A DNA stretch of 64,000 nt, taken from positions 434,001-498,000 of the forward strand of contig NW_026515671.1 in assembly GCF_025526975.1 (NCBI RefSeq), written 5' to 3'. Of this stretch, positions 1 through 50,257 are shown piece by piece (position 1 is the stretch's first letter; every line of letters starts with the position of its first letter). The notes beneath the pieces are model-generated. The model was not told where the DNA came from and searched no databases. It saw nothing but the letters and a program-made list of their open reading frames with translations. The position numbers were made by a program, and so were the translations under genes. This stretch comes from Fimicolochytrium jonesii. Taxonomy: Eukaryota.

Positions 1-990
1 GCATATCCGGGAGATGGGTGAGATGGCTTGCACATTGCAAAAAAATGACGTTGCGGCATGTCATAAGTATTCCGTGGGCAGCTCTAAAGGCAGCCTGAGC
101 TAGTGGCCAGCTCCAAAATCCAGATATGTGTTTGAACTTGTCACCGGAGAGCACCATATTATACCCAGACAGTGTGGGAGATAGATATCGTTAACTTTAA
201 GGGAGGAATTCGCCATATAAGCCCTGTAAGTGGGAACCATCGCCGATATCACGATCTCGATGAGCATGAAAAGAAAGCATTCTATGTACCCATCACGTGC
301 GCCAATGTGCAATTTACCGTGGGTGGGGTTTAAATGCTCCCAACACCGTGGTTTATTCCTTGGGTTATTCCATGTCATACAGTACATACTGTACATTTCC
401 TACATTCACCTACGTCCGAGTGCCCATTTCTGGTTTATTGCCGGTTTCGGACACGGCGAAGCTCAAGCAAGCACTTGCCATTAGAACTAGCTTGCCATTG
501 TTGTGTCGCTTTCATTTGCTTCACCAGGTCTCCGATCGTCCTCACCCGAACCGTCAAAGGGCAAGCGACAGTGCACCGTAGACCAATTGTGCGAGGAGCA
601 CCTCTCCATGAAGCAGTCAGCCATCATGTCCCCTAGATAGCATTCTCCTCCGCATCGATAAGCCGACGATATGGAGCACCTTTCACACAATGCCGGCGTT
701 GTTGAAGCCACGCCGTTGGATAGCATGTACTAGTAAGTGATGTACGGTACTTGGGTATGAATGAAATACGGATTTCCTGAGCGGAACGACATTTGCCTTT
801 ACCTGCTAATTCCCTCAGAGCTATAGATATGGAGGTTTTGACAGGCAGCTGTCGAATCTACCTGTGCACGTGAAGCTAATTCAATTTGAGTGGCGCAGCG
901 CAACACACGAATCGTTCCCCACTTTGAGCGAGAGATCACCATTTTGCGAATCCCAACAGAGGCCGGACGACATTCCATTGCACAGCCGCC

Positions 991-1998
991 ATGGTGAAGC
1001 TCAACTATGACGTCCTCAGTGTGGCGTCCTCTTTCATTAACGCCGTGCAAGATCGGGAGCTGAATCTCCGAGGTAGGTTCGGAGGGCGTAACGGGGGTGC
1101 GGAGGACTTTCCACTCACTTGGAGAGTACCCTATAAGGGCTCAGAAGGGGCAGGGATTTGCAAGGCTTTCCGATAGATTACTCACCATCCTCATATTCAT
1201 AGGCCTTAAGATACCACAAATAGAGAACTTAGCTATTACCAAGGTGCGTTTTCGGCTTCGGCGAATGCGAGTCGACGACCATATCTTACAGCGATCTTAC
1301 GACGATAGGACGGAAACGATGTGATCGATTTCACAGATAACGAGCTGCGACGATTAGATGGTTTCCCCTTGATGAAGCGATTGAAGGCCATACTAGCGAG
1401 CAACAATCGAATCGCAAGAGTCGATCTCGAGTTGGCAAAGCAACTACCCAACCTAAAAACCCTGATTATGGCGAACAACCTCATAGAGGAGCTGGGCGAC
1501 CTTGATCCACTGGCGAACCTAGAGCATTTGGAATGCTTGAGTCTGATGGACAACCCTGTTGCTACAAAAAAGTATTACAGGCAATATATCATCCATCGGT
1601 GCCCGAAAGTGAGGATACTGGACTTCCGAAAAGTCAAGGAAAAGGTGCGGGCCATCCTTGAACATACTGGCTGAAGTACGATGTTCTAACCAATCGATCA
1701 GGAGCGTCAAGAAGCCGCGTCGTTGTTTTCGGGGGCGGACGGCACCAAGCTCGCAGCCAGTTTATCTGCTACGAGTTCGAGGACATTCGAACCAGGGGAA
1801 GGACTGAAGAAAACACCCAAATTATACCAGGGGCCGTCCCCGGAGGAAGCGGCAAAGATTAGGGAAGCAATCAAAAACGCCAAGACGCTGGACGAAGTTA
1901 CACGATTGGAGAAGTTGCTGCAAACGGGGCAGGTTCCGGATGGCACCGCGCAGGCAACAAAACAGGATGATATGATGGAGGCCGAAGAAGAGGCGTAG
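991..1998 (+). CDS. LEA1: U2 snRNP A' protein (LRR), 4 exons
   Basis: Spliced: MVKLNYDVL..RELNLRG|LKIPQIENLAITK|DGNDVIDFTDNELRRLDGFPLMKRLKAILASNNRI..YRQYIIHRCPKVRILDFRKVK|..IKNAKTLDEVTRLEKLLQTG. GT-AG introns at about 1073-1202, 1244-1308 and 1645-1701. Confidence 0.95.
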
Positions 1999-2609
1999 GG
2001 AGATGGAATTCTAGTCGTTAGGGTCAGAAAGACCTCTTGGCAGAATGCGAGAAGGACGGCGATGCGCTTGGTGAGGTCGCTCAACAGCCGCCGACACAGT
2101 GGTCCTGTGTACAGCATTGTTGCCATCGGGCCACCCGAGCATAGGGTCGATGGCAGAGGTGTGGGCCGGCTAGGGGTCATGGAGACAGGAAAGGCCCACC
2201 ACGCTGTTGCTTGTATTTAGTTTTGTAACATAGGGAATAGCCGGAGCTTCGAATATCATGTATTCACAACTGCCTGCTACTTTATGGAACCCGCTCTGCC
2301 CTGGGATGGAGATCAAAGTATACTCGAGACTGAGAATGGCGCCAATGCTCACGTCGCAGCACATTGCAGTAGTTGGAAAATTGATTACTTTCCTGATAAA
2401 ACCGAGGAAGGATGTACAAAATACGCAATACAATAATCCTCTCACGCTTCACATCGCCCCAACCCCTCCACGAGCATGCTTATAAAGTACATAGATACAC
2501 CGAAATCGTCCCTTGCCGCGATAAATACAGTAGAAAAGTTGAAGGTGAAAGAAAAAGGAAAACGCCGTGAGGTTTTCAAAATGGAGATTGTGATACCAGG
2601 TCCCGCGTC

Positions 2610-3788
2610 TCAATTCCCAGCGACAACACAAAGCTTCGCAAGATATTGACCGCCGATCGGCGCTTGTTGCACGGTCTCGTTGAACGTGAATTGGAACGTC
2701 GCGAACCCGCTGGCGGAGAAGAAATGTCCGGTTGTGCCAATGATAGACAATGGGCCTTGCACGTCGGCGGTGGTTGGGTTGAAAATGCCCGCGAGTTGAA
2801 AGGTACCAAGATTGCCGAAGGTGTAATCGGCGGAACAGTAGTTGGCTCCGTCGTCTTGTTTGAGATCCGTGCAAGTTCTGGATGGCAAGATGTCTGTTAG
2901 GAAAGTCCAAACATTGTACCCCATTGTACATGTCAATCAAAGAATCAATACATACCCTCGTGAAATGCCGGTTGTAGTTCCGTTCACGACCAGGGAGCTC
3001 TCGAACGTCGTCCCAACGGCAGTAGGAGTGTTATTCTGGAAGATTTCGTTGAAGGCGAAGTCCTCCGCGACAAGTCCAGCCGCGCAAGAGGGACCGCTAG
3101 GGACCGCCGTCGGGGACGGTGTTTCCGTCGTATCGCACGGCGGGAGTGTGACATCCGTCCACGTGGGTGTAGGCTCTTCTGTGGTTGTGTCGCAAGGAGG
3201 GTCTTGAGTAGGGGTGGTGTGTGAGATAGAAGTAGTCGTGTCATCACACGGTGGGTCTTCGGTCGTCGTTGTGCATGGGCAAGATGTGGCATAGACAGTG
3301 GTCCAGCAGTCAGTTGAGGTTGGGGCATCCGTAGTCGTCCAAATTGGTATGCTGTCCGTGCTGCTTGCAAGTGAGACGATCGAAATATCTGCTACGGATG
3401 TGTGAACGCCCGCGATTGATGTAGCGGATGCCCAGACGTTTGAGCTGCTTTCATATGAAGTGGCCACCCACGAAGTGGACGCTGTAGAGCTTGCGAGAGT
3501 AGTGAGGGATGCCGTGTCGGTCGGGCAGTAGAAGATGGTAGTTGTTTGGCATGCCGCCGTAGTAGTCATGCTGTCGCAAGGAGGATCGGACGTCCACTGG
3601 CCAGCTGTATCAGACGTTGCGGTGGTGAAAGTGACGGTTGTCGGCGAGGTCCACATCGATCGCTTCGCAAGAGCAGCGGGTGCAGGGACAGCACGGACAC
3701 CAGATATTGTCAGACTGCAGAGTAGCGACAGCCGGATGGCGAACTGGGGACTGCGACAGCCGAGCTTGCTTGGCCGGGAAGTGTGCAT
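2610..3788 (-). CDS. Secreted Thr/Ser-rich protein with PPCD repeats and a C-terminal dirigent/allene-oxide-cyclase-like beta-barrel, 2 exons
   Basis: Signal-like RLSLLCSLTISGVRA, Thr-rich stalk, intron at about 2879-2955 joining GISRG-TCTDL, then YC..DYTFGNLGTFQLAG..LSIIGTTGHFFSASGFA. Confidence 0.7.
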
Positions 3789-4620
3789 GGCGAGGGGAAT
3801 GAATGGGAATATGCAGAAAGGGTTGAACTGAGACGATGAGACGATGAGATATCTGTTGCGTTTGCGAGCGAGATAACCGGCGTGAACTCTTGAAGCGAAA
3901 GGGCGGGCACTTGGTGGTTGCCTTTTTAACTGGGCGGGGTTTCGCACTTGCGGGCCCGATCGCAACGGAAAAAACTATGGATGCGCAGCGGGGTAACGGG
4001 GTCCGGTATTGCTCGTACAGCGTTTTGCACTCGATATTGCAACCGACAAACTGATTGAAGAGACTTGGGATGAAAGTTGTGACGATGTTCAGGCTCACCG
4101 CACGAACTGTTTGATTTGGCGCCTTGCCCCTTTCGCCGTTCATAAAACAAACTGCTCTTGACGTGCCACCGCCTCACGCACGCATTGCATATCCGTCCTG
4201 CCGTCGAGCGGAGGACAGTGATTAAAATCAGGGATGCTTTTATTGATTGCCGATGTTTGTCTGGGAGCACCCCTTGGGAACGGAAGCAATGCTCTTCTTT
4301 CCTGACGCGACCGACGCGTTTCCTTCGAAATAAGAAGCGACGCGTTCCCCTGAGACATCCCTCCGAACCCTGTCCGCCGCATGCCTTTACCGCGCCACGG
4401 CAGGCCAGACGGCTGGCCGGCTGTGCGCACATCGATTGAAGGTAGAATGAGCGCGGCGCTCGACAGAGATGCGGCAACCGACAATGGCAAACGAAACTCG
4501 AGCTGTCGGACATTTGCAAGCTAGATATCAAACCAAGTGCTTCCGCGCTCATTCTGAGCTTGCGACTCGGAAGACAGACACAATCTGATCGCACACGATG
4601 CAAACCAGTGACCAATTCGT

Positions 4621-6000
4621 ACACAATTTCAAGCAGACCACAGACATGGATTGCATAAAACATATGTGCAAGTAAACATTTACATGCTGACCCCATCAAG
4701 CCATGCCTCCCATCAATACAAATTTTTGACACTTTGCAGAGCCACATAAGCAGACAGTACCAGCAGCCTTTGAAACTTTCCCTTTGCTCCCTACTGCGGC
4801 ATTTCCAAAGTACGAGAAGGTCAGCTCCTCACCAGCTGTGACATCCCGTGTGGTGAAAAAAGCAAGGTCATGTATTTCCGCTGTTTGTGTGGTCAGAAAC
4901 ATGGCATAGCACGCCATGTTTGGATCACAGGAGTGGTTGAAAAACCGCGCAATGTTGCCAAACTTCTTTGCATCAATGACATAAGACATGCCACTGGTGG
5001 AGGATTCACCAAAGTAGTCCAGGCTGAAGAGGAAAGCGCCATCACATGTTTGGGCCTGCCAATCAGCCAGTTTGCTGGGCATCATTTCCCCTGCATACTA
5101 AACACATTAAGGTTAGAATGTTCAGGATCTCATGCTGCCTACATTGACGCAGGAACTTACCTTGGATACAAAAGTTCCCTGTGGTATATTTTCCAGTGCC
5201 CTGACACCCCATCCCTTCTGTCCCCCACAGCGAAATATCTGCAAGGCAACCTTTCTGCCGTGCTGTGCCACCTTCATTCCACAGTTCTTAGCACAAGAGC
5301 AATTAGGGTTGCACTCATACACAACACCTTGCTCTGGACGATGCTGCATATGGCCAGAAGCATCATATGGGGCCTGTGATTCCACACATTCCAAGATGCA
5401 TTGGCAGGCATATTCCCCACTGTTAAAGTCCAAAACGAGTTATATACCACATCAGGACACATACCCACTTCCCTAGTCTACAGCAACAACCACACTTACC
5501 TCATCATGCAATTGCCCACACAAGAGCAGCCAGCAAGTGCCTCTGAGCTGGGAGGTGGCATTGCTGAATACTGATACCCCTCCAGCCACTGGAACCCATC
5601 TGGGGGCCCCTCAGCATCTGTATCATTGTACACTGATGTACAATACTCCGCTGTGGCAAGTAGGCATGACCACTCATCTCGGTGTGGCGTATTGATAGGT
5701 GTATTGAGGAGGATTGGGATTTTGAGAATGTCCGCAGCGGAGGGTGCCAGCCAGATGGTGGGCATGGATGCAGAAGAGGTTGTCTTGGGGATGCTTGGTT
5801 TCCCTTTGTTGATGGGTCTTTTTATTGTTTTGCTGATGGCTCTTTTGATTGTTGTGGGATGAAGGGCACTCCTTTCCTGTGCATGAAATTTCTTGAGAAG
5901 TGCTGGGCAGTTCAGGTGGGCTGCAGGCTCCCAAGTCATTTCTTTGAAGCCCACCCACTTGACAAGATAGAGGTTTTGATCCTGTCCACAGATGGATTCA
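4621..6000. other. CpG-depleted, TpG/CpA-rich island inside the clr4 gene body
   Basis: Hand count gives about 18 CG in 1380 bp, against about 29 CG in 6121-6480 (exon 1 of the same gene) and 5 in 4561-4620. Confidence 0.85.
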
Positions 6001-6538
6001 ACCTGCGTAGATGCAGAACATTGAAGGAGATCGAAAATGGTATGGTGAATATGGAAACGAGATGGCTACGTGATGTTTTCGGGAAAAGAAATTGGCGATG
6101 GTAACATACATCCCACTCTGTCTCCTCAGTCTCGTCAAGCTCCGGGTTGCCTTTGCCACGCTGATTCTGCTTCGGCTGTTGGAGTATCTTAGTTGACGCT
6201 CCGCGCTTTCTGAGTGGCCTTCCATTGGGGTCGTCGCTGAAAGGGGTCGCCGGTGCCGATGAGCTTTCGGAAGCAGCACTCCCAGTCTCGCCTTGACCCT
6301 TCCTGCGTCTCTTAGAATCTCGTTCATCAAGCAAACCGGGTTTCGGTTGCTCAGCTCGCTTTCTGACGCCCCTCGTTTGACGCGGTTCCTCCGAGTTCGA
6401 AGCTTCAGGAATTTCCGCTCCCAAGGTTTCCAGATCCATATCCTCCGTGTCGCTTGCTCCCTGTGCCTCGCTTGTCCCCATACAATCTGAAAGCATTTGA
6501 ATGTCTACTTCCGTCTGCTGGAAGGGGTATCGCTGCAT
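4696..6538 (-). CDS. clr4: Clr4/Su(var)3-9-family H3K9 methyltransferase (chromodomain, pre-SET, SET, post-SET), 4 exons; start codon uncertain (6538, 6496 or 6481)
   Basis: Chromodomain EWD|VESICGQDQNLYLVKWVGFKEMTWEPAAHLNCPALLKKF; pre-SET CSCVGNC..CQC..YECNPNCSCAKNC; SET KGWGVRA..GTFVSK|YAGE, IDAKKFGNIARFFNHSCDPN, GEELTFSY; post-SET CLCGSAKC. Introns at about 6110-6003, 5499-5421 and 5160-5100. Confidence 0.93.
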
Positions 6539-7245
6539 GGATCTACTTTCCAGCGGTTTTGAATTCCATATGATCAGCGACCGTACCCGTGCTGTTCTCC
6601 GGAGAAGGCAGTAAAGCTTCAAGCAATGGGCTGTAAGACTCGGCCAAGTGGGCGTATTGTCTCCTCTCTGAATAGGGCCGTAGAGTCGGTGATAAAGAGA
6701 TGCCTACGAAAAGTGGCGGTGGGGTTTACGGTCCTCCAGGCTGAAGCGAAAAGTTGCGTTTTAGCCTTTGGACGAGCTGAGAGAGAAAAAGAGAAACAAA
6801 CAAAATTATACCTACACTGCGTTGCCTTGTGCGTCTCTTTCGTTCTTCCGATCCCGTCTGCTGTGTAAGTGTTGTGCAGTGTGGGAGTGTCGGTCGGATG
6901 TGCGGATGAGAGACAAGGCTGGGAAAGTCGGAGCCGGCGGCGCGGAGGTGCAAGTTTGGCGACTTGTGGCCTTCTGACAGTGCCTTCATGACATGCTGCG
7001 ACTCGGAAAGTTTCCGGGAGGGTCCCGTCTTCGTTTGGTTATATACAACGACCCTGAGACTTGACCACTACGTAGTTCGTTGCTGTATTTAGGCAAGCTC
7101 CTCTTGCTACTTCCAAGCTCCTCCCAACTTGCGCCACCTAAATCATTGAGACTGGCCGCTCCATAAAAGTCCATCGGCGAGACGAGGAGCCCTGAATCAA
7201 CCACAGTCTCACACCAACAAGTCCCGCACCCAGGGCAAAGCAAAT
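6539..7245. promoter_or_regulatory. Putative bidirectional promoter shared by clr4 and KDM4
   Basis: Divergent start codons about 0.7 kb apart with no recognisable gene between them. Confidence 0.55.
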
Positions 7246-10200
7246 ATGGCTACGTTGGAAGCCTCATCAGGACCCGGCTATACGACCACCGAAAACGGCA
7301 ACGGGCCAGCGCCGCCACTGCCCAGTAGCTCCCCGGCCCCGAGCATTCCTTCGTCCCGTCCCCCAGCGGTAGAGACTGCAGACCCTCCACCGGTGGAGGC
7401 GCCAACCACAGCCGGCCCCGTCCCTCCTCCTGAATATGAATTTGACGAGGGCGGCGTGCCGGTCTTCCGGCCCACGACCGAACAGTTCGCCAACTTCGAG
7501 AAATTTATAAAGAGCATCGAAGGGATAGGCGCCGAGGCCGGCATCGTCAAAGTGGTGCCGCCAAAGGCTTGGAAGGACGCTCTACCGGACGTCCGGACGG
7601 CATTAGCCTCTCTCAAAATCAAAAAAGCGATGAAGCAGTCGATCAGCGGGGGCAGCCTCCCCAGCGGCTGCTTCTTTCAAATGAATGAAGACCACTGTAG
7701 AACGTACACAGTTCAGGAATGGTACGAGGCCTCGCAATCAGGGCAGTATCAGGCTCCCCGCTTTAACGAGGAAGGAAGGGCCGTATTTGACCCTCTACGA
7801 ACGAAGAGGAGGCCCACAAAGGACATCAGCGACGTCCATGACCCTGTGGCTCGGGTGGCTCCCGAGCTCGCAATGAACCCAATTGGCGAGGGTTCAGCAA
7901 TGCAACCGCAGTGCAATTCCTCAATAACTTTCGATCTGGAGGAGACGTCAAGCGGGTTCGACAAGGACCATTGCTCCAGGTTGGAGCGCCACTATTGGCG
8001 CAACGTCACGTTCGCCGCGCCCCTGTACGGCGCGGACATGCTCGGGTCGCTTTTCGACCACCCAACCATTGAAGAAGCCGCACGAGACATTCCTTGGAAT
8101 TTGACTCGCCTGCCAAACTTACTCAACCGCGTGAACCTGAAGCTACCAGGGGTTAACCTCCCATACTTGTACTTTGGCATGTGGAAATCGACATTCGCTT
8201 GGCACGTTGAAGACATGGACCTATACTCGATAAATTACATCCATTTCGGCGCTCCGAAGCAGTGGTATGTTATCCCTCAAGAAAGCCGCGGACGATTCGA
8301 GACCGCCATGCAGTCGAATTTTCGGAACGATCATGCAAAGTGCAATCAGTTCCTGCGCCATAAAAGCAGTATATGCTCCCCCAAGGTTCTTGAAAGAAAG
8401 GGAATCAAAGTAAACCGTGTGGTCCAGCACGCCGGCGAGTTCATGATCACATTCCCCTTCGGATACCACCAGGGATATAACATGGGGTTCAACTGCGCCG
8501 AGTCTGTCAACTTCGCCACGGACTCGTGGATTCCTATCGGAAAACAGGCGACGTTCTGTCCCTGTGTCCCAGATAGTGTCCGACTCGATGTTAGCGCGTT
8601 GTTCGACCCTCCGGTCGTGAGGAAAATCAAGCTCGTTGTTCCCAACGGGCCATCGCCGAATAAGCGAGAACGGGAGAACAGTGAAAACGGCGATTTTGAA
8701 ACCAACTCAACCGCACAAGCGAGGCCTGTCCTTGCACCAAAGAAGCGCCGGAAGGTCAAAGCGGCCACATCTTCCAATGTGCCGAATTCCAAAGATTCAA
8801 TGCCTGCGTCTGAGCGAGAGAAATCCCCTGTGCCTGCAATGAAATGTGTTTTGTGCCCTACGACATCTGGTCTCCTACTACCGACGGACAAACCAAATGT
8901 TTGGGCCCACAGGTCGTGTGCTACCTTCATCCCTGGTAAGTCATCTATTATCTTCGGCTTCTGTCCGCATTGGTATTAATCGGCTGTTCCCCTTTAGAAA
9001 CACGTGTTGAGGCGCATCCGATGGATGCAGGCTTAGAGATCGTTATAGGTATTGACGCCATAGCTAAAGCTCGATGGCGTTTGGTAAGATACCGCTGCCC
9101 TCCAGTGCACATCTTGACAGCGCATATGTTCTTATACCTTCGTTTGCCTTTCATTTTCATAGAAATGTGCGATCTGTCGAGTTAAGGGGCTCAAGCTCCC
9201 AAAGTCAGGACTTGGCGCATGCATTCAATGCGCGAAGGTACGCATCTCATGTGAGGATTACTTCTAACCGGGCTACCTTTCTTATCCATTTGCCCGTTGC
9301 GTTACCAGGGTCGCTGCGTCGTTGCCTACCATGTAACATGCGCCATGGAAGCAGACCAGATATATACTAACGATGCGCAGGAAAACCCGCACTGCTTCTG
9401 GTAAGTATCCCTTACGTTATTGTCTTATACTGCACATTCACTCCAACGGCTCATGCTCCATAGCACCCAACATAATCCGGAAAGACAATTCGCGAAACAA
9501 ACTGAGAAGTTCCAGTTGTTGGAAGAGGCAGCGAGGAACTTCACGCCAGGTCTACCTGTTTCTGCCAGATCGTAAGTACCGATAGCAGCCTCTCCGCACT
9601 GTCCTGCTTCCCCGTTTATTCATCGCTCCACCTACAGGGAAGGGCAATGGTATGACGGGCTGATAAGCGAAGTCGATCATCATAAACAAAGGTTCGTCAG
9701 CTTGGATGCCCACTTGTGCCTTTGAGGTCACCCACTTAACACTGGAAACCTAAACAGCTGCAGGATCGCCTTTGCGGACGGCACAAACCGTGTAATCAAA
9801 TGGAGCATGATCCAGCCGAGAAACTCCCACCCTCCATCAGCTCATCATTCGGTGCACCAGACGCCCTTGTCTTCGCCAGCGATGCCGCAACCTCTGATGC
9901 GGATGAAGGTCGAAAGCGTATCGTTTCCGGGATTTCATATCAAGCGCGAAACAATAGCGGAACCGATCTCTCCGATCAAGTCCCCACATGAGAAAATTCC
10001 AATGCTTCCCTCGAGCGTGGAGTCATCCATGGCGATGGAGGACGTGAGATTTAGCCCTTCCCGAGGGCAATACGGCCTCAGCACCGACCATGAAGCGTAC
10101 GACAACCTGACGAGAAGGCTGTCATTCCCCAACCATCCTATGAATCTGCCGCCCCCATCGCCGTCGCATGTACAGCGGGTGCCGACTGATCCATACCGAC

Positions 10201-10577
10201 ATAGCGCATCTTTCAACCTACCCACCCCGTCGCCGTCGCACGGGCATGTGCCGATGGACGCGTACCGGTACTATGGCTGGGGACACGCGAGAGGGTACCC
10301 GCCGGTGCCGCACAATGGTTATCCTGTCCATCCGACCCACATCGAGCGTCCGCACGAGCCTTGGCAACCTCATGCGGACCAATGGCAGCGTTCAGGTGAA
10401 CAGTGGCAACGTCCCGGAGAACACTTCCAGCCAGGGAATACGCTCCCTCCCATCAGCTGCCTGTTCCAGCAGTCGATCTACGACGGTTCTGCACCGATGA
10501 GCATGTCGGACAACTCCAGCGGGTTCCCGCCGTACCCGATATATACCCGAACTCAGCACTATCAACAAGCTATCTGA
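7246..10577 (+). CDS. KDM4: KDM4/JMJD2-family histone demethylase (JmjN, JmjC, extended PHD, Tudor-like, low-complexity tail), multi-exon
   Basis: JmjN VPVFRPTTEQFANFEKFI..GIVKVVPP; JmjC PYLYFGMWKSTFAWHVEDMDLYSINYIHFGAPKQWY..FLRHK..GYHQGYNMGFNCAESVNFA; PHD CVLCP..WAHRSCATFIP..CAIC..GACIQC..C..AYHVTCA; Tudor-like QWYDGLISEVD..CRIAFADG. Confidence 0.93.
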
Positions 10578-11056
10578 ATATCAACCGGCCTTTGAGCCCC
10601 GCAGCAACGCACACACTTGACAGCGATACAATAAGCGTTTCTGCCCTATATCGAGAATTTCGCACAACAGCAGCCCGCGGATCTTCATTTTTCCTTCTTG
10701 CGCTTTTCTTTCTTTCATTCCCTTCCTTGAAAGTGTATCAACATCTGGAAATCGTTGTGCTGCCCACATTTTTGGAAGTCCTACATGCTCTGAACACTTG
10801 TTGTGGAAATCTCCTGTTATCAACAAAAATTGATTTCTCGTATTCCCCATTTCTGCTATCGTAATGACTTGGCGCCTTGCTGCTATTGACCATTAGCGGG
10901 TCACTATTTGATGTGGATTATTTACCGCAAAGAACCATTATGCTTGAGAATGCTCCAAAAAGCTGGAACTTGTTGTATTTCCACGGCGGCAACCGAATGG
11001 GCGATTGAACTCTTGTGGAAAGGACGCAATCGAAATCTTGTTCGATGGACGCTCAT

Positions 11057-11721
11057 TCATTCGCCTGGTGTCCATGTAGCCCCTGAACTATTCAACTCCC
11101 GCTGCACAGACTCGACTTTGTCTTTGATCGAGGACTCCTTGTCTGTCCTCGTTCCTGGTATTCCAGCATTTTTAGTATGGAGAGCACCCAATGCCGGTGT
11201 TTCCATGTTAAACCTACCTATCCTAACGGTAGTATGAACTCGTGGAGCGTTGTTCGGCGGTGCATGAAGCACTTCGTGACATCGTCTACACGAGGACCGA
11301 ACCATTAGTGTGATCCTCCATGCTTCCTGTGCGTACCCTGCCTGCACTCACTTGATTGTGTTCATCACGTCATCCCACTCTCCTTCTGCATACCCGAATG
11401 AAACATATATCCATGAGCTCCCGCATCCAGGTTTGCCTTCTTGTACCGCCGGTCAATGCAACACAATCGCCAACCAACCGATATTCGTCCCGCATGAGTG
11501 CATAGCATAGTTGACTTTCTTCTCCTTTGCGCTTTCCTGCAGCACGCGTTGCACTTGCGCGACGTACTTGGTCAGCTAAGCGTAGATCACCCCGGATGGA
11601 AAAAATATCAGCACCTGCTGTTTTGCTCTGGCGTGGGAGCTGCTTTTGACATTGGCCAGCTTACCGAGGACCCTACGCCTAAGGGTATGATGCAATAGTC
11701 GGCTACTACTTTCATGGCCAT
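11057..11721 (-). CDS. ECM15: UPF0045/thiamine-binding family protein, 5 exons
   Basis: Spliced: MKVVADYCIIPLGVGSS|LTKYVAQVQRVL..YAMHSCGTNI|EGEWDDVMNTIK|RCHEVLH..APRVHTTVRI|GTRTDKESSIKDKVESV. Confidence 0.88.
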
Positions 11722-12672
11722 TTGTGAGGTTTTCACTTGGGAAGTTACAATTTCTTGAGCCAATGCGTTGGTTTGTGTGCGGCCGTAAGTGCTGAGTTCT
11801 CTGACTTGCGATCCCTTGAACGTCGGGATTGCCAACGTGCTGTGCAGCGTGCTGTGGGCCTTGTGGCGAGGCTTAGCGCTCTTTTCGTCGCCGTGACGTT
11901 TGCATTGGTGACGCGTTTTTCTCGTATACATATATACAGCGAAGACAAGCAAAGCCATCTTGTGGTTTCGAATTTCGAAGCAAGTCCTTCTCGCTGGGCA
12001 GACCCCCCGGCATTGCAAGTACGCCGTCAATCAGCAATTTCAAGACGGTTGTGCAGCATTGATCAACGCTCTAAGAATCCAGTCTCCTTTAGGAGTCCGG
12101 TAAATCAACGATACATACTTTGGATTGCTCACAACCGTGCATTGGTTTTCCGCCTGACTGCTGAGTGAAAGGCGGCGGCTTCCCCATGCTGTCAACCAGA
12201 GCCGTCGGTGGTATGGATAAATCGTTAGATTCTATCCAGGATTCTATCGTGATTCGTATGGCGCATCGTATAGTATCTATAAGATCCTACGGAGGCTCGG
12301 AGCGGAGTACTGCACTTGATATCAAAGAAGTCCAGATCTGTGGTCAAAAAGCACGCGCGGGAGTGGATGGATGGATGGATGGCGTCGCTCTCCGCAGCAG
12401 CAGAGCACAAAATGCGCCCACTCGCAGGAGTCGCAGCCCCTGCAGGCCCTTCTCCGGGTTTTCCTTCTTTTGAACAAGCCGACTAGTTAAAAGCTGCATC
12501 TGTTGTCACTCGCCCGCTATCATCCTTTGCAAACGGCAAGTCACAACCCCTCCGTTGAAAGTCAAACTTACCATCGTGTGCGCGGATGATCTACCCGGCA
12601 CTGCTGAAGCGAAGAGTTTAATACCAACGGCCACCACAAAAATAGATTGGAAGAACCTGTGGGCTGGTCAGG

Positions 12673-14245: not shown

Positions 14246-17200
14246 ATGAGCCCCAATATGAACAGCTCCCCACGACCACTACGCAATCCTACCAGAGCTC
14301 TCAATGCCACCCCGGCATCCAAGTGCAAGAATATCTTCTCAGGGGGCGTGGGAAAGTCGCTATACACGAATATAAATCTGGATACCACTGCTACTGCGAA
14401 GCTCAAGGTAAGCTAAAGAAAAGCGTAGAATAAAGAAATCCAACGTCCAAGCATGTATATGCCATCCTAGTGCAATGATATCTTCTTTGCCGTGCCGTGG
14501 GGTATCGGGAACATCGGCGTTTTTCCGGTCCGCCGACCGCCGTTCACGGACCCGATTCGACTGGAAGTTAATCCGCCTCTGATTTTACGTGGGTATCTCC
14601 ATGAACATGATTTTGAGTCCTGGGAAGCTTGTTCTAAACGGCCCGCTGTCCACTTCACTAGCGCATGGAAAACAGATCCAAGATTTTGAGTTCTCCTCCG
14701 TAGATCCAACCATCTTAGCCACATGCACGCGTGCAGACGGTCTAGTCCGTATCTGGAAGATTCCCACGGACGTGTCGCAACAAGGTGTAGGTCGGGAGAT
14801 TGACGCGGCCGATACGTATCTGGCGGGACACGAGAAGAAGGTGGAGCTGTTGAAGTTTCATCCGACCGTGGGGAATATCCTGGCAACGTGTTCTGCGTGA
14901 GTAATGGGCGCAATTTGCGTATGCTTTATAGATGCTCAGAACCTGAAGTTTGATGCTTCCCCTCTATTTCAGAGACTCGACGATACGCTTGTGGGACTTG
15001 GTGCGGATGCAGGATAGGGTCTCGCTGGTTTGCCCCGCACAGTCCGCACAACATATATCGTTCGACTTTTGCGGAGGAATGGTGGCCGTAATGGGGTCGG
15101 ATGCCAATCTGTACCTGTACGATTGTCGGGCGGGGCCAGAGCCTATACAGGTTCGACCGTATGCTGTTTGCATGTCGCTGTTCTACAATTTCTGATAGTC
15201 CTCAGTAATCAGACAGCGATCACCGGGCACAACCCTTCGAAATCATGCAGGGTTTCATGGCTGACCCCGGATCCGCTCATTGTCACAACCGGTTTCGAGA
15301 AAGGAAACGCGAGAACAGTCAACCTCTGGGACACATCCAACCTGTCGAGCCCCATACAGTCCTTGAATGTAGACGGGACAGGTGTGGGGCACTTACAACC
15401 CTATTGGGATCCCGGGCTGCCGATCCTCTATTGCGGATCCAAAGCCGAGGGGATTCGAGCGTACGAACTCCTGCATGGGACGTTGGCATACATCGGAGCG
15501 ATGAAGTTGGAGAAACAAGCGGTAAGAGCGTGTTAGACGGTAAGACTGTGTGACTCCGATGCTGTCGGCGATGGCTGCATAAGGCTGAATCTGCGCTTTG
15601 GCAAGCTTAGACAGCAGTGGAGTTGATGCCAAAATCGCTTTGTGATGCGAGGAGATGCGAGATTGCGAGGTTCCTGAGCTTGAGGTGAGGTGGTTTGTAG
15701 TATACGGTTATGGCGGGAGAGCAAAATGGTGACACCCGATCATGGTTCTCGCAGTGTTGAGAACAGCAGCGTGGACATGACAACAATCCATGTGCCCAGA
15801 GTGCATGGCGAAGAAGCTTTCCAGGAAGACCTCTATCCTCCTATACCAATGGCGCATTCCGGACGGGATGCCGACTTGTTCTTCAATACGAGGGACACGA
15901 TCGAGCCTCTTATGGTACATGCGGTCTTGGATACGGTTTCTGGCACCAAGAAAAGGGAAGAATCCAACGAGCCATTAGCGCATCTCCTGCGGGATTCATT
16001 AGCCCCTCCCAGTGTCGAGGAGCTTCTCCATCGACATGGCGATACCATGCTGCGAAAGAGTACGACACTGAGACGGCCCATGACGGTGTCCGCAAATGGG
16101 TCATCGCGGTCGGTTTCAAACGCTTCAATCAATTCATTCACACAGTCTCGGGCTACAGAAACCATTCCTGCGTCGCACGCGCCAAGTCCGGCGACGAGTC
16201 TAGATGGGCGTCTCGATATCGAGCGGAAAACATGGCTGACTGCAACTTGGGAGCCTCATTATTTGTCCTTGAAAAAGCTCCGGCTATACTTTAGCAGTGA
16301 CGCTGATGCAGACACACCTCTGTATTCCATCTCCATGTCAGCTATAAAGCGTGTCGAGGGCTTCTCTATCGGCATTGATCGCGGCGACGAATCAGATAAA
16401 GTGGGGATTTTTCTCGAAACGACGGAGAAAACCCATCGTTTGAGAGCTGGATCAAAGTACGAGCGGGATCGCTGGCTGGATGCCCTAACGGAAGGAATGC
16501 AGAGGGGTCTTTCGCTGGCTCATCAAGGGCTTCGTGGGAGTACATTGGACCTGCCCGTATTGCCACGAGCTTCGTCAGCGAACCTGCTCTCGAGAACACC
16601 AAGCTTGGCGCCGCTCGAGCGGAAGCCATCATCGCAATCCTTCATCATAGGCAACCGCTTAGGTGCTGCTCTTCTCGGTGATCTATTATGTCTCACGGCA
16701 ACAGAAAATACCAAGCAGATCTGGAACCCGAGACTCGTCATGCTCGACGAAGACGGCCTTCTGCACCTCTTCGTCAACGACATCAAGTCGTATACCCAGG
16801 GCAAACCCCCCGTTCAAACATGGAGTCTACACAAAGCCATGGCGGTGCGACTCGTTGATTTGAAGAGTACCACGAGCATGCATGAGACCAATGGGTCAGA
16901 TACCTCGGGGATGAAAGCGTTTCAGATAACCACATTGAAGCACAATGTGTTTTTTGAAGCGCGCAATCCAGTTGAGGCTGCTAATTGGGTCACTCAGATT
17001 CGCCGAGTTATAAACGTGAAGAACTTCCTGCCAGCAGCGGAGTTGATCGAAAGCGATGTTTTGGAAGGGTTCGTCTCAATCAAGGACAGCGACAACGGTC
17101 TCAAACTGCCTCCTGGCCGGTATTGGCTGCAGGTCGTCGATGGCAACTTCCTGTATTCTGCGTTGCGGCTGAGCACTAGCCCATTCAAAGTTGTCGATAG

Positions 17201-20039
17201 TGGGAAGTTCGACGGTGTGCAAATTGGTAGAGCGGAGAGCAATCCGGACACTGCTGCTCAAGGGAAGTTTATTCCCGCCAAGGATCTGAATCTGTTCACA
17301 TTATCGTTCACAACAGACATCAAATGCGTCCATGAGGTCGAATCGCTAGTCGAAGCAAATGTTTGGGCTCGCGAGCTTACAAAAGTTAGGATGGTCGCCT
17401 ACGACGTGCTGCAAGCAATGGGAATCTCCTCCGAGGAAACCTTCCAGGATGAGATGTTCCAAGCAGAAATCGATGAAAGCCGCGGGAACTGGAAAGCAGA
17501 GATGGAAAGAATCACAATTCTGGACGAGAAGAGCATTGAAAAAGGGGAGCAGAAGTTCCTCGCTGGAGTGTTTGGGAAGGTGCGGTTGACAATCGGGTCC
17601 GTTCCTTGCACCTGGCAAAGTCTTCGTTCTGATGGAGCTTTTGTTTTGGATTTGGGTGAGTGGGGACATTTTAGCGTGATATCACATGTATGTCACTCCT
17701 AAACAGTGAATATTGGGTTCCAGGATCCGTGGTCTATCATTGGAATGGCGTAAGTTCGTCTCGGGTATGTCGGGCTCGGGCCATGGATCTTGCATCTCGA
17801 ATTCGCAAAATGCGGGCCAACCGGCCGAGAGTGCTCTTGGTAGACGACACAGATCGGGACCTGTTGAATACATTCTTCAAAGCCTTGGGATCTGAAAAGG
17901 CAACCGACGCGGTACGCACACAACAGCCCTTATCCTCACCATCGGATCCTGTACTGGATGCGAATGTCAAAATGTTCATATCGCGCCCGTCGCGATTGCG
18001 AAAGAATCGACTGAGGCTTGTGTACGAGGGAACTGCACCGTCCCGAAAACTGCTCGTGTCCGATACCGTCTGCCTTGTCCTCAGCCGCCATCAAGTTTTT
18101 GCTTGGATTGGGAACTCCTGTCCGCGCGAATCTTCCGATCGTGCCCTTGCGAATCTTGCTGCCAAACGAGGTGCCATGATGCTCCGAGATGCCTTGGGAA
18201 GCCGCGAACATCAGGTGTTTGTCAGAAGAGAGTTCGAAGGACGAGAATCAGCAATATGGAAGGTACGAGACATATGCTCGATTTTATATGTGCTGTGGGA
18301 AGAAACTTGAGGTATGATATGGGTTCTGTAGGAGACATTTGTGGACTACGAAGGCTCCCTTCCCATCAGCATGCGAATCGAAACGGAGACGAAGGGCAAC
18401 ATTGCTCCTCAGCTTGCGCAACCAAAGATTGACCTTGATACACTGCCCCGACGTGCGTCGCTGCCAGCTCACCTCCTAACCTGCCCGGATGACGGCAAGT
18501 CCGGACGCCGGTCCGTCCACCGTGTCGAGGACTTCCTGTGCCACGACGTCCCCGCACACCTGGTGGGCCAATTCTTTCAAGGGGAAAGCTATATCATCCC
18601 ATACATGTACAAACCGCCAAATAGTGGTGTGGAGAAGTGCATCAGTTACTTCTGGCAAGGTTCCACCAGTTCCGTCACCCAAAAAGGGACGAGCGCGTTG
18701 CTGACCATCGAGTTGAGCAAGCAGACTGATGGTGACGTTACTCAAATTCGAGTAGTCGAAGGGAAAGGTAGGGGCTCCACAAGTCTTTAGCGCATGATGA
18801 ACGTTCAAGTGGCAAACTCATAGATATCGTAACACCCCAGAGCCACTGCACTTGTGTAAGCTGTTCTCCGACGGCATCGTCGTCAGGATTGGGCGTCAGC
18901 GGCGAGATGGTGAAATTCTGGGCTTACCGGTGGGATTCGACATCCGAGAATGTTATGAAGGCTGCTTCAAAGCCACTGAAGTGGCAATGCAAGGTACTAA
19001 CTTTGCCGGCATCCCAAGCGTTCTTGAAATAACAACTTACACGACATGTTGCTCTTCATTGCAGATCTGCCATTCAATTCGAATCACATTACGCTCGTAA
19101 TATTCGACAAGATGGCTTACATTTGGACCGGCGCTCACTCCGTTCTAGGAGAGCAGCAGTACGCGGCGACGGTTGCACGCAAGTTCCTGGCAGAAGAGTC
19201 AGCAGTTCACATCGTCAGAGAGACGGAGAAGCTTCCGAAGGAAATAGCAGGACTTTTCGAAAGTTACGGTGCAAAGCTTCCTTCATTTCGATCGACGAAA
19301 GCCCGGTATCTTCCTCGGTTGTTCGCATGCTCCGCCGGAAGTGGAGTCGTGCAGGTGTGTGCTCCATTTCATAGCGTTTGTTAACTTTGACCAATGAACG
19401 TACCGTCCGGTCTAGGTCGAAGAAGTCCCGATGTTTGTGCAGGACGACCTGGATGCCAAGATGGTCATGATCCTAGATGGTTTCTCATCCATCTATGTAT
19501 GGTTCGGCAGCTCCTCAAGATCCTCAGAAAAGATTATCGGGATGCAAACCGCCATTGTAAGCAACTGCCTCAGCGGGATTGTGCTCGATGCGAATGCCAA
19601 CTGTGCGCTTTCTTGCAGGAGTACGGCAGCAAGGCCTCGGAAGCACCGGCTCTGTTTGTTACTTATGAACATCAAGAACCGCATGAATTTTCCCGGGCAT
19701 TCCCGGGGTGGGCTCGCTCGAAGCGGAAGTCATTGTACGCCGAGAACCAGGTCTTATCGAGACCATTGAAGGAAGTGCTCGAAGAGTATACGCGGGAGAC
19801 CTACCCGGTGGAGATATTATTAGGGGATAACGTGCCGCCCCATCTGGACCCGACGAGATTGGAGGTAGGTGATTCTTTCGCATGCTCAGGCTTTTCTGAT
19901 ATTCGACTGAAACATTTGCCCGTAGGCATACATGACTGAAGAAGACTTCGAAGCTCTGTTCAAGATGACGAAGCAAGCTTATTGGGAACTTCAGCCTTGG
20001 AAGCGGGTTGAAGTGAAGAAGGCACTTGGAGTTTTCTAA
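14246..20039 (+). CDS. Villidin-like class-4 coronin: coronin WD40, PH domains, gelsolin repeats, villin headpiece; many exons
   Basis: Coronin motifs GHEKKVELLKFHPTVGNILAT, MPKSLCDARRCEIARFL, HVPRV..FQEDLYPP; PH-like ERDRWLDAL, EAANWVTQI, EANVWAREL; gelsolin WQSLRSDGAFVLDLG, GQFFQGESYII, YFWQG, QDDLD..VMILD; headpiece FEALFKMTKQAYWELQPWKRVEVKKALGVF*. Confidence 0.9.
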
Positions 20040-25298: not shown

Positions 25299-27235
25299 TC
25301 ATGACGGCTTTGCCTTCTTATTCGCCGCTTCGACTGCCTCTTCCAACGACCGCTTTTTACTGAGCACGCTTGCAAAGGTAGAACTTCCAAAATACTTGTC
25401 GTTTTTAGTTGCCGCCATGCGTTGTGCGGCCAATTCGGGATTCTCCAGTTCAATTCCTTTGACCGGCGTAAAAGCGACCGAGGAGGAGAAGCCGGATGTC
25501 GCGCCGCCAGATATCCTGCCCAACTGCGTTTGATGCTTCTTCGCGACTCCAACTGAAATGAGAAGCGGAGTCCTGTTAGAACATGCTGTATGACCTGTAA
25601 AGACAGAGACTCTTCGGTTTACCTTTGACCCGAGCATCGGCCTGCATGGCCCTGATTTTTCCAGTTTGCTGCCCAATGACTCCCAACCCCTTCGTCATCC
25701 CAGTCGAAAAGCCGACCTCATCCTCCGCAACTCCAAACTGCATGCGATTGGCCGCTTTGGAAAGCTCAGTCTGCGCCATACGATCTTTCGCCTTCCTGAA
25801 CCTCTTTCCTGCTCGGCGCTTCTTGGGCCCTTCATCTGGGATCGGCAGTGCTTTGATGTTCTTGCCGGGTGGTGGTTGAGACACGACTTCTATCTTCTTT
25901 TGCACTTCGTCACGCATGTCGCGCCCCATGGAGCCATCTGCGCATGCTCCCGCCTGATCTACTCGCGCCATCAACACTAATCTGGAGGGTGCAACTGTGT
26001 TTAGTGACCAGGTCACGCTAGGAAGGTCGAGGGGTATGTGAATAGTGACTCACTTGGCAGACAAGATTCTAGCAGCCTGGCGTCGGAACTCCTGCGGTGC
26101 ATTTGCGACCAAGTCTGTCGTGTATACGATTCCCTGATGCTTCTGCTGCGTCACGGACGACATTCCTGTATTCATTTTCATCTGTTTCCCCAGCACGATG
26201 ATGTTAGAAGCCGGAATGGCGCTAAGATGCTTCAGTCCTCCTGAAAGCCCCATCAGCTTCGCAGCAATGTTACTGCCGATGAGAGCAGAGAGATTTGGAG
26301 CGATGAACGACATGCGCGATTCGACATATTCCAGAATCTAAAGAAAAATTGCCAAGATTAGCAGATGAAATGATGTAAGAGTTTATCAGTTGAGAGACGC
26401 TCACCCTTTGCTTTGCGGCGTCGAGAGCCAGAAGGGTATCACAGGCACGTAGGACCCTTTGTAGGGCATCTTCGCTCAACGGCTGACCATTTGTTGTCGT
26501 TGCGGTAACAGTGACGACCATGACAGTCGCCTGCGGCAGGATCGACTTCAGGTCTCCTATTTGTGTTAAATCCTGCAAGTGAGGTCAGTGAGCCAGGAAC
26601 GTGGGAATCGGACAGAACAGAGATTGTTCGAACAAACCAGCTCGTTTCCTATCAGCTTCACCGTGCGAGCATATGCGAAAGCGTTGGGCACAAGCGATTC
26701 CAGCTCCGGAAACCTTGACGCATAATGGTCCCTGATGTACTATCGGAGAGAAATCTACTCTCAGTCAACGGCGAGAAGCAATGTTATAGCCTTTGAGGCA
26801 AATGGCAACATTTATGAAAATGCCTTCGCTTACCTTGTGCACAATCAACATTTCGGTGTCAATATCCTGCGTCAGGTTGTTCACTTGAACAATCAGTTTG
26901 TACTCCGGATCGTCTTCCGTATGCCCCGCCGACCGTTCTGGCGGCCGTGGGTTGTTCATGAACTGATCGATTTTCTGTTCGAAAGACGGGTTGTGAGGAA
27001 GACGTTCCCCTTCATATACGAACCACATGCAAAGTCCCACCTGCATGGCGTCTTTGAACTGCTTCGAGTCGCTAAGCTTTGCAACTGCTCGAACGTCATC
27101 ACCCGCCACCGCTGTAGGCAGAAGGTCGTCCGTCACCTCCATAGCATCGTCGTCGCCGTTGCCATCATCGAGATCATCCAGCTCCTCCTCATCTCCTCCC
27201 AGCTCCTCCAGGTCCAGGAGCAAGTCTTCGTCCAT
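25299..27235 (-). CDS. PRP31: U4/U6 snRNP protein Prp31, multi-exon
   Basis: EDDPEYKLIVQVNNLTQDIDTE, RDHYASRFPELESLV, IAPNLSALIGSNIAAKLMG, KALPIPDEGPKKRRAGKRFRK, SGFSSSVAFTPVKGIELENP. Confidence 0.96.
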
Positions 27236-36293: not shown

Positions 36294-37275
36294 ATGGCAC
36301 CAGCAACCTCAGCAACCGATCCCGCACCGTCCAGCGGCGAATCTTCTACCGCCGGAGCGTCAAGACCAGCTCCCGTCCTTCCCCTCACGCAGCGCCTCTC
36401 CAAACTCGTCATATCAGCCCAGTTTCTGTGGTTCCTGGGTCATCTCACGACCGTGATACAGACACTGGTTTACGTTTTGTACGCCAGGTTTGCCAGTACC
36501 GATGGTGGAGCTAAGGCCTACGCGAAGGCTTACTACGGGACCCTGCTTTCGTATGGGATTATCATGTTCAAGGCTCATGGGGTACGTTGGGTTGCTATAT
36601 GACATCACTTTATCTTTCTGAGACAGGGATCTCATGGGCTTTGTCTTGCGTAGAACCCACAAATCAGCATGGGCTACCTCACGAATGTCTTGAGGGACGA
36701 GAACAGCTGGTACTTTCTGAGCGCACTTTACTGGGTGACATCCAAGCCCCTTGTTGGTGAGTGCTTCGGAATGTGAATAGTCATTCCAGTTTAGGGCGGC
36801 AGCTCATGAGTTGCTTTTCCATTCATCAGCCACACTGTTCCCATACGTGACCTTCTCCCTTTTCCACTCGCTGAACTACATTCGTTCTGATGTCCTTCCG
36901 GCGCTCCTTCCTCCTTCCACATCGTCCATCACCCCGAAAATCCGAGACACGATCCTACGACTCGTCAAAACGTACCAGCACACCGCCTTGCGATATGTCG
37001 CATACGTGGAGGTGTGGACCATCATGCCCGTCGTGACGATCGGCGTCCTCTTCGGGTGGACCTCGTTCTTTGCTCCATTGATGTACGCTCGGTTCCTGAT
37101 GTTCAGATACCATTCGTCGCCCTTGACGGAGCAGGCGTTTGTGGAGCTGCGACAGAAATTGGATGCGACGGCCAGTGACCCTCGTGTACCGGCGATCGTC
37201 AAGAAGTTCTATGAGGGTGCTCGTGATGCGGTCATCAAATCGGGGGCTGTTCCCACCGCCCCGGCTCCGCAATAG
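36294..37275 (+). CDS. POM33: TMEM33/Pom33 family ER and nuclear-pore membrane protein, 3 exons
   Basis: SAQFLWFLGH, AYYGTLLSYGI, LRDENSWYFLSALYW, LFPYVTFSLFHSLNYIRS, YARFLMFRY. Confidence 0.88.
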
Positions 37276-48408: not shown

Positions 48409-49406
48409 TCCTAACTGCCAACGCGGCTGGAACCGGACGACCACTTAGAAGCACTACGGAAACGGAACGCTGGTTCCAGCGCGCGGTGGCTACGAAGGTC
48501 TGGGCTCAAGAGAAGTTCCTGTATGAGGGATGAATTCAATTTCTGCTTTACAGCCACACTCTCATTTAGTTTCGCAGGTAGGCGAGGCATCACTATCCGC
48601 CGTGCTCAAACAAAAGCCGCCCACTCCTCAAGTTAGATTCCCTCCGGTTTGTGTCAGGGTGGATGCACGTGATCGCTTTCTCAGGCTCTTGAGCAACGTT
48701 ATAGGGCTTCCCAGCCTGGATGATTTTACAAACACCAACCTGACAAAGCTTCAGTAGCGAACGTTCCGTATAAGGTCCGCGCTGTGCCGCTAAATACTCG
48801 CGAAGCTGTAGCTCGAGAAGAATGTGCTGCTGCCCTGAAGCTCCACGGCCAAGGGTGTATTTCGAAAGTGAGGATACGATGCGGCGGATTGCAAGTAACT
48901 GTGGGGGAAGCCTCGGTGAACGAAGTCTCGACCGCTGTTGATCCTCGTTTACGTTGATCGTTTACGTAATGAGCCTCGTGCGCAATGACCGACCGGTTCC
49001 GAAGCGTGCATTTCGGACATCTGGAGGTTTCGTTGGTTTCCTCGACTCGCAATTGTAACTCTCGCACTAAAAAGGCGTGGTAAACGAGAAACGCAGGCAC
49101 AACAAGATTGGTATAGCACAGGTACGATGTATTGCTTGAAGGTGGGCTCATCACGATTTTTGCGCTCCTGCTGCCCTCATTGTCGGACGGAAAACCCACC
49201 GCTAACTGAGAATCCTGCAGAACTGAGCATCGAGCAGAAAACGTCTACTTGTCGATAAGCCGGTTCCCACCACAGGCTATCAGTCAGCTGCCTCGACGCA
49301 ACACCGTCACATACTTCCTCGCTTTCTGTATGTTTTTTTCAGGTCGCCTGGCGTACGTACAATGGTTGCTCATGCTGAGCTCCTACACCATCAGAATACT
49401 ATAAGG

Positions 49407-50257
49407 ATGGCACATCACAAGCCTCGTAGCATGCCCGTAGGGCAACGCAACGTCCTGCGGCCAAACGACTCGGCCTCACTGTGGAACTGCACACTCTCTC
49501 CCGGCTGGTCGCGAGATGAAGCCGACATACTCCGCAAAGCCCTCATGCGCTTCGGAATAGGCAACTGGAAGGATATCATGGAGAGTGGGGCACTGCCGGG
49601 CAAGACGAACGCACAGTTGAATCTGCAAACACAGAGGATGTTGGGGCAACAGAGTACGGCAGAGTTCCAATTACTCCATATCGACCCGCTTGTGATTGGA
49701 GAGAAGAATGCGCAAATACAAGGGCCGGATGTGAAGAGGAAGAATGGGTTCATCGTCAATTCTGGAGGTCAGTGATGATGCATCTGATGCACCCAGGCCT
49801 GATGGATGCCAACCTATCAGAGATTGATGAGCGTTAGTCGACAGGAAAGGTGACGAAGGAAGAGAAGCTACGAAGAATTAAGGAGAACAAAGAAAAGTAA
49901 GGCTAGCTGGGTGAATTGTACTGGTACGACACGTCGCTGACATCTCGCATTGTATCTGATCAGGTATGAACTGCCAGAAGAGGAATGGCGAGCGATAGAA
50001 CTTCCGAAGATAGACGAGCCATCAGCGCGTAAGTTGATGTAGTCTCTCGAGTTTCAGGGATCCCAGCTGAGCTTTCTCATCCAACAGTTCTGCAAGCGAA
50101 GGAAGAGCAAATAAGAAAGCTCGAGCAGGAGCTCGCACTAGTGCGCAAACTCATAGCCGCGAAACGGGAAGTGCCAGAAAACGACGAAAACGTAGATGTG
50201 CTGGGGACGGATGTCGATTCGAATGGACCAAAACGGCAGAGAATGGAGGTTGTATGA
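49407..50257 (+). CDS. p1: p1 DNA-binding subunit of the MTA1c/AMT1 DNA N6-adenine methyltransferase complex (Myb/homeobox-like), 4 exons; alternative start at 49362
   Basis: SLWNCTLSPGWSRDEADILRKALMRFGIGNWKDIMESGALPGKT..QTQRMLGQQS..LHID..RKNGFIVNSG|GKVTKEEKLRRIKENKEK|YEL matches my recollection of the ciliate p1 N-terminal domain. Confidence 0.85.

Follow-up and report, generated by a model that had tools for sequence, protein, structure and literature searches.

Why has a gene for a predicted H3K9 methyltransferase lost most of its CpGs over one sharply bounded part of its body? The gene lies in a 64-kb stretch of DNA (the whole of which is here called the window) from Fimicolochytrium jonesii, a soil chytrid fungus, and about 80% of the CpGs in its 3' two-thirds appear to have gone to TpG/CpA. 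In the fungal order of F. jonesii, 5mC is reported on transposons and not on genes, and a deep, bounded scar on a housekeeping chromatin gene is therefore an exception worth explaining.

The extent of the depletion was assessed with a three-class segment scan over the 64 kb. The segment 4619-6005 scored 63.1, the runner-up 8.6, and it was the sole segment of such depth in the window. It holds 18 CG, whereas all other 1380-bp windows hold at least 72 (mean 93.6, SD 9.3). The CpG o/e averages 0.98 over the 64 kb, and the drop is confined to the bins of 4501-6000 (0.56, 0.22, and 0.16), in which the o/e of TG and CA rises to 1.45-1.78; 128 TG and 150 CA were counted in 4621-6000. The hand counts of the initial annotation (18 CG in 4621-6000 and none in 5761-6000 or 5461-5640) were reproduced, and so was the contrast that it drew with the flanks and with exon 1, which has a CpG o/e of 0.95 (31 CG in 429 bp). 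Both edges are sharp and can be placed within intervals of ~90-120 bp. The 95% interval of the 5' edge, 5959-6077, spans the intron 1 acceptor (6003) and most of intron 1, and that of the 3' edge, 4565-4651, lies 45-131 bp beyond the Clr4 stop. Hence, introns 2-3 are covered as claimed, whereas the edges are less exact than stated: an end about 75 bp past the stop and a start at the intron 1/exon 2 junction are both compatible with the intervals obtained.

The depleted segment corresponds to exons 2-4 and introns 2-3 of a Clr4/SUV39 gene. Four minus-strand exons joined by GT-AG introns give a 530-aa reading, free of internal stops and frameshifts, whose last 366 aa match a deposited F. jonesii protein (P0001) at 100%. 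Exon 2 (5500-6002; chromodomain, linker, and start of Pre-SET), exon 3 (5161-5419; end of Pre-SET and start of SET), and exon 4 (4696-5097; SET core, post-SET, and stop) have CpG o/e values of 0.16, 0.20, and 0.34, respectively. Of the 16 exonic CpGs that survive, exon 4 keeps 8, among them that in the CGG codon of R448. Intron 2 (5420-5499, 80 nt; 1 CG and 12 TG) and intron 3 (5098-5160, 63 nt; 1 CG) agree with the deposited model. The inferred exon 1 (6110-6538, minus strand) would encode a low-complexity N-terminus and the first chromodomain residues, and its in-frame join to exon 2 through a GT-AG intron suggests that it belongs to the same gene. That intron, intron 1 (6003-6109, 107 nt), splits the chromodomain and shows no overall depletion (6 CG, CpG o/e 1.62). 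The deposited 366-aa model begins at Met165; it omits exon 1 and the greater part of the chromodomain, and the 530-aa reading restores both. An 8-codon upstream ORF (6543-6569, minus strand) stops 4 nt short of the inferred start codon of Clr4; it matters only if the Clr4 transcript begins farther upstream.

As judged from its sequence, the gene product is a member of the SUV39/Clr4 family and a predicted H3K9 methyltransferase. A chromodomain (PF00385) was found in exon 2 with 28 bits at a cut-off of 25.1, and Pre-SET (PF05033) and SET (PF00856) were both above the Pfam cut-off. The motifs RFxNHSC, ELxFxY, and post-SET CxCx4C are at residues 447-457, 486-493, and 513-520, and the best solved-structure (PDB) matches are to S. 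pombe Clr4 (E 5e-49). In a tree of 45 SUV39 rows, the Thoreauomyces protein is the sister (support 97/88); the wider chytrid group around F. jonesii Clr4 has weak support (86/71) and is drawn open. This sister placement within the chytrid group fits vertical descent. The chromodomain, Pre-SET, SET, and post-SET are common to S. pombe Clr4/SUV39 and the F. jonesii protein, but in F. jonesii the coding sequence is CpG-eroded, the protein is Arg-poor and Met-rich, and the gene stands head-to-head with a KDM4 gene. The Thoreauomyces orthologue (P0314), 5'-partial on a 1754-bp contig, is without the conserved helix between the SET motifs.

Loss of CpGs can result from a change in codon usage or a general drift toward AT as well as from methylation. 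In exons 2-4, the ratio of synonymous NNC to NNT was 4:59 before G versus 100:42 before other bases (P=6e-19); in exon 1 it was 10:11 before G and 19:17 before other bases. NCG:NCA was 7:42 in the depleted exons versus 233:246 in six control ORFs, and the share of G at third positions without a preceding C was 0.59 versus 0.57 in the controls. The controls were six of nine long ORFs; the three others, Arg-rich (9-11%) and dropped as possible wrong frames, are likewise undepleted. Since non-CpG third positions are normal relative to the controls, a general AT drift or a change in codon bias was rejected. The CpG loss is found on both strands, with a reciprocal gain of TpG and CpA, in exons and in non-coding parts, and strand asymmetry was not significant (P=0.09). 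Introns 2 and 3 together with 77 bp of 3' flank contain 2 CG against 8.1 expected (P=0.013), and given that these parts are also depleted, codon choice alone is no explanation.

The sequence context of the loss was also examined. All four NCG trinucleotides are down to 0.10-0.30 of background, and CAG/CTG are up. The CpA o/e is ~1.6 in the depleted segment and the TpA o/e 0.4-0.7, which is not raised. With CAG/CTG up and TpA flat, neither CHG decay nor CpA-type RIP fits. RIP acts in the context CpA to TpA; the Neurospora-type process resembles the present case in leaving a bounded run of C-to-T transitions, but its bias from CpA to TpA is absent from the F. jonesii segment, in which CpA is enriched and TpA is not, and RIP was rejected. 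That 5mC deamination yields a CpG to TpG/CpA pattern is established (PMC12695648), and the loss described here is very probably its footprint. The initial annotation had proposed stable methylation or a heterochromatic state in a gene that stays functional, and the CpG-specific synonymous loss, together with the retained frame and catalytic motifs, supports a 5mC footprint of long standing.

Such an abrupt change in composition could also arise from an assembly chimera or from the transfer of DNA out of a CpG-poor genome. We consider either of these very improbable, since the protein groups with chytrid relatives, the chromodomain frame continues uninterrupted over the edge, and the non-CpG codon positions match the host controls. 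One DNA run (X1), with a depth of 2, provided 12 records, and four among those listed are near-identical 151-bp pieces. The piece over 5979-6129 differs at two sites, and at one of them a CG of intron 1 is restored; as the piece has fewer than 31 letters on the depleted side, it was not counted as bridging the edge. At a depth of 2, the missing X1 cover over 4501-5836 carries no information.

The scar extends to the amino-acid make-up of Clr4. Of the 45 SUV39 rows, only F. jonesii Clr4 was a composition outlier (chi-square P<0.001). In the 305 residues compared, it has 2.3% Arg and 3.6% Met, versus 4.9-7.9% and 0-1.0%, respectively, in five chytrid orthologues; one non-chytrid row among the 45 has 2.6% Arg. 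The ratio (M+Q+C+H+W)/R is 7.9 in F. jonesii versus 1.3-3.6 in the other 44 rows. At chytrid-conserved columns, i.e., those in which at least four of the five orthologues agree, 5 of the 21 changes are single CpG transitions, versus 4 of 65 in the adjoining KDM4 (P=0.036). Several G-to-A changes were seen at conserved residues with G-starting codons after a pyrimidine (V438I, V463M, A479T, and E406K), which speaks for no more than modest selection at CpG sites.

Given these changes, it must be asked whether the gene is still functional or is instead silenced and drifting, either by a CpG-targeted RIP- or MIP-like hypermutation after duplication or as a stable silent epiallele. In accord with the latter, 7 of 54 near-invariant columns differ in F. 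jonesii, four of them between the SET motifs (residues 403-422), and one of the seven is an Arg conserved in 98% of homologues and altered by a CpG transition; at least seven departures were found in only 3 of 119 rows, other chytrids showing 2-10. The initial annotation had described all catalytic motifs and frames as intact: the core motifs and the frame are so, and 47 of the 54 near-invariant columns are retained, but the remaining seven qualify that description. About one-third of the CpG losses at codon junctions are non-synonymous, which also fits a drifting gene. Yet the ratio, ~29 synonymous to 14 non-synonymous, was set against the control expectation (binomial P=0.03, a rough value), and three of the five surviving CGN codons sit at conserved Arg positions; together they point to a modest signal of selection at CpG sites. 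Further against silencing, the frame and the three introns are preserved, no SET, Pre-SET, or post-SET motif is damaged, and departure from the chytrid consensus (21 of 110, 19%) is like that of the orthologues (11-22%). R448, which we take, from the structure-match alignment and the residue numbering, to be the counterpart of a particular S. pombe Clr4 arginine, still has the codon CGG. That arginine of S. pombe is tied to high activity (PMC4395908).

An intact frame is by itself compatible with recent silencing, since few stops would be expected from a rapid process confined to CpG. Relatives of F. jonesii provide further hints of drift. The Geranomyces orthologue (P0002) lacks a Pfam chromodomain. 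With it as the query, five further Geranomyces protein sets, in each of which KDM4 had been found, yielded no Clr4 in a word-limited search that also missed known orthologues; this absence may reflect loss, mis-annotation, or the limits of the search. On balance, the gene is apparently still functional, and we regard a silenced, drifting gene as rather unlikely.

The initial annotation had proposed that clr4 orthologues in related chytrids be checked as CpG outliers too. Their proteins gave no sign of this: CpG-type erosion was seen in none of five chytrid orthologues at the protein level, at which synonymous depletion would be invisible. The scar thus looks lineage-specific. Among 80 of 493 confirmed metagenome SET loci, none had chytrid Clr4 as its clear best match, most resembled Set1/Set2-type genes, and none showed depletion against its flanks. 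Twelve of the 80 had a SUV39-type best match and a CpG o/e of 0.95-1.30; these come from other organisms and make a weak comparison.

The surroundings of the gene were analyzed with Pfam. The nearest gene upstream encodes a KDM4/Rph1-type JmjN-JmjC-PHD demethylase, whose first long exon (7246-8979, plus strand) is CpG-rich and served as a control. The genes for Clr4 and for this H3K9/K36 demethylase are head-to-head, their deposited proteins carry consecutive accessions, and the 707 bp between the divergent start codons (6539-7245; CpG o/e 0.89, undepleted) are likely a shared promoter region. The adjacency was absent from three other chytrid assemblies (Spizellomyces sp. 'palustris', Rhizophlyctis, and Borealophlyctis), in which Clr4 and KDM4 are on different contigs with distant tags; for this comparison, Thoreauomyces was too fragmented and KDM4 was not retrieved for the Geranomyces strain having P0002. 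The Clr4-KDM4 pairing is a new observation, unseen in the other chytrid assemblies that allowed a comparison. Elsewhere in the window, housekeeping-type domains were identified: LRR_9 (1309-1674), PH and gelsolin (15684-18310), ribosomal L3 (21291-21686), Prp31 (25576-26049), Pom33 (36781-37275), Myb (49227-49775), and SCAI (53575-54129). No transposon domain was found among the 59 other ORFs scanned, of 122 listed. With housekeeping neighbors and no transposon domain, the region looks euchromatic.

The initial annotation went further and regarded the gene as an epigenetic feedback sensor, in which the Clr4 body is selected as a target of its own mark and high H3K9me/5mC lowers the output of the writer. 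In a variant, the head-to-head KDM4 may share the control region, tying writer to eraser. The 5mC-type footprint underlying this idea stands; the sensor step is so far unsupported, and CpG decay reports 5mC, not H3K9me. There are points in its favor: the only depleted segment in 64 kb falls on a chromatin-writer gene, the 5' end escaped depletion and the reading frame is preserved, and the writer and eraser genes are adjacent and divergent. Precedents exist as well. ROS1 is reportedly an Arabidopsis eraser gene whose own locus is methylated, as described in a study of it as a rheostat. In S. pombe mst2 epe1 mutants, H3K9me at clr4 is reported to lower its mRNA in a negative feedback (PMC4395908), and IBM1 has a methylated sensor intron (PMC11265718).

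These precedents are alike in part only. The ectopic heterochromatin of S. pombe shares with our case a silencing mark at the gene of the H3K9 writer itself, but as described it is a transient, H3K9me-based state of mutants, absent from clr4 in the wild type (PMC4395908), while F. jonesii carries a fixed, 5mC-type mutational scar that is read from sequence. IBM1 and ROS1 are, like Clr4, chromatin regulators with a methylated own locus; in the accounts consulted, however, they are erasers with the sensor in an intron or upstream, whereas F. jonesii has a writer with the scar over coding exons and introns of 63-107 nt. Methylation of exons has cost Clr4 conserved residues, a cost for which the intron used by IBM1 offers no parallel. 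The IBM1 sensor is also described as widespread in flowering plants (PMC11265718), whereas the orthologous proteins of F. jonesii Clr4 look unscarred, which argues, if indirectly, against an old conserved sensor. The absence of the Clr4-KDM4 pairing from the three other assemblies likewise stands against it. What drew attention to the locus was that it encodes a chromatin writer, and coincidence is possible. Taken together, a selected feedback sensor is a possible but unlikely reading. We see only an outside chance for its most elaborate form, a rheostat in which the writer gene body is a standing target of 5mC/H3K9me and a protected shared promoter couples it to KDM4, both genes being tuned at one locus. 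We found no report of a writer-side sensor in fungi; if the sensor were true, the IBM1/ROS1 rheostats would have a fixed, natural counterpart on the writer side and outside plants.

The position of the edges raises another explanation, namely that Clr4 belongs to a minority class of body-methylated genes, in which 5mC runs from the end of a 5' 6mA domain to the end of the transcript, irrespective of the product. Depletion sets in ~530 bp downstream of the ATG and runs to 45-131 bp beyond the stop codon, and in species with both marks on genes, 5mC is reported to rise where the 5' 6mA fades (PMC12695648). However, no other gene in the 64 kb is alike, longer ones included; the outcome that many unrelated genes are equally depleted, which the initial annotation had set against its own reading, did not appear in the window. 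A single case in 64 kb cannot bound the genome-wide frequency of such a class. Fungi are described as having largely lost gene-body methylation (PMC13297926), and Spizellomyces, in which 6mA marks expressed genes, is listed with 5mC confined to transposons (PMC12695648). We accordingly find this explanation doubtful.

The explanation that we favor, tentatively and with somewhat less than even confidence, is that a duplicated or transposon-captured copy directed CG methylation to the gene through homology, and that the methylation was then long maintained in one lineage. It is ranked first because it accounts for a mark that is sharp, specific to one lineage, and confined to one gene amid CpG-rich neighbors, in a group that methylates repeats. 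It would start from the CpG-specific loss observed on both strands of exons and non-coding parts, which in all probability arose by 5mC deamination. Since the orthologous proteins are uneroded, the scar would postdate the split from Thoreauomyces. The first ~0.5 kb would have remained unmethylated, lying in a promoter-proximal 6mA/active domain, and with such a protected 5' domain transcription could continue. Purifying selection would have steered most losses to synonymous routes and spared catalytic codons. The candidate trigger would be sequence homology to a silenced copy; if H3K9 methylation were damped in consequence, this negative feedback would be incidental and would not account for the mark. 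A 6mA level of 1.84% is reported for F. jonesii (PMC11258239); near the promoter, the TAT/ATA signal of 6mA proved too sparse for interpretation.

A parallel for homology-directed methylation is found in maize, in which donor genes of captured fragments are reported to be methylated over the captured region, with no spreading, and can stay expressed (10.1101/777037). The likeness lies in the bounded methylation of a host gene that can stay functional. In maize, however, the capturing element is known, whereas no second copy of the F. jonesii segment was found in the 64-kb window, with only short chance-level repeats in 1-12000, or among annotated F. jonesii proteins of 234-2000 aa in a word-limited search. 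Capture by viruses was likewise not seen: four pattern matches in viral contigs yielded no confirmed case. Also against a homology trigger, the edges fit transcript anatomy, beginning after the 5' domain and ending near the likely transcript end, as is expected of gene-body methylation and is not needed for a random duplication. If a duplicate did cause the scar, a transposon-silencing conflict would have struck the silencing machinery itself, and methylation-driven mutation would have reshaped a conserved enzyme.

Whatever the trigger, the feature is, on the sequence evidence, real, strong, and unusual: an H3K9 writer gene that is apparently functional, and that neighbors the gene of its eraser, bears a lineage-specific scar of the 5mC type. 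The footprint reading is well supported. No methylated or CpG-depleted chytrid Clr4 gene was found in the literature searched, mostly non-subscription texts, and methylome supplements may list methylated Spizellomyces genes.

Two further features were observed downstream of Clr4. A Ser/Thr-rich ORF on the minus strand (2937-3974) is CpG-rich and has no Pfam match. A very CpG-rich imperfect palindrome at 4300-4350, ~300 bp past the 3' edge, contains two ACGCGT sites (4314 and 4340), which to our eyes resemble cell-cycle boxes. This element could belong to a promoter with additional antisense activity into Clr4.
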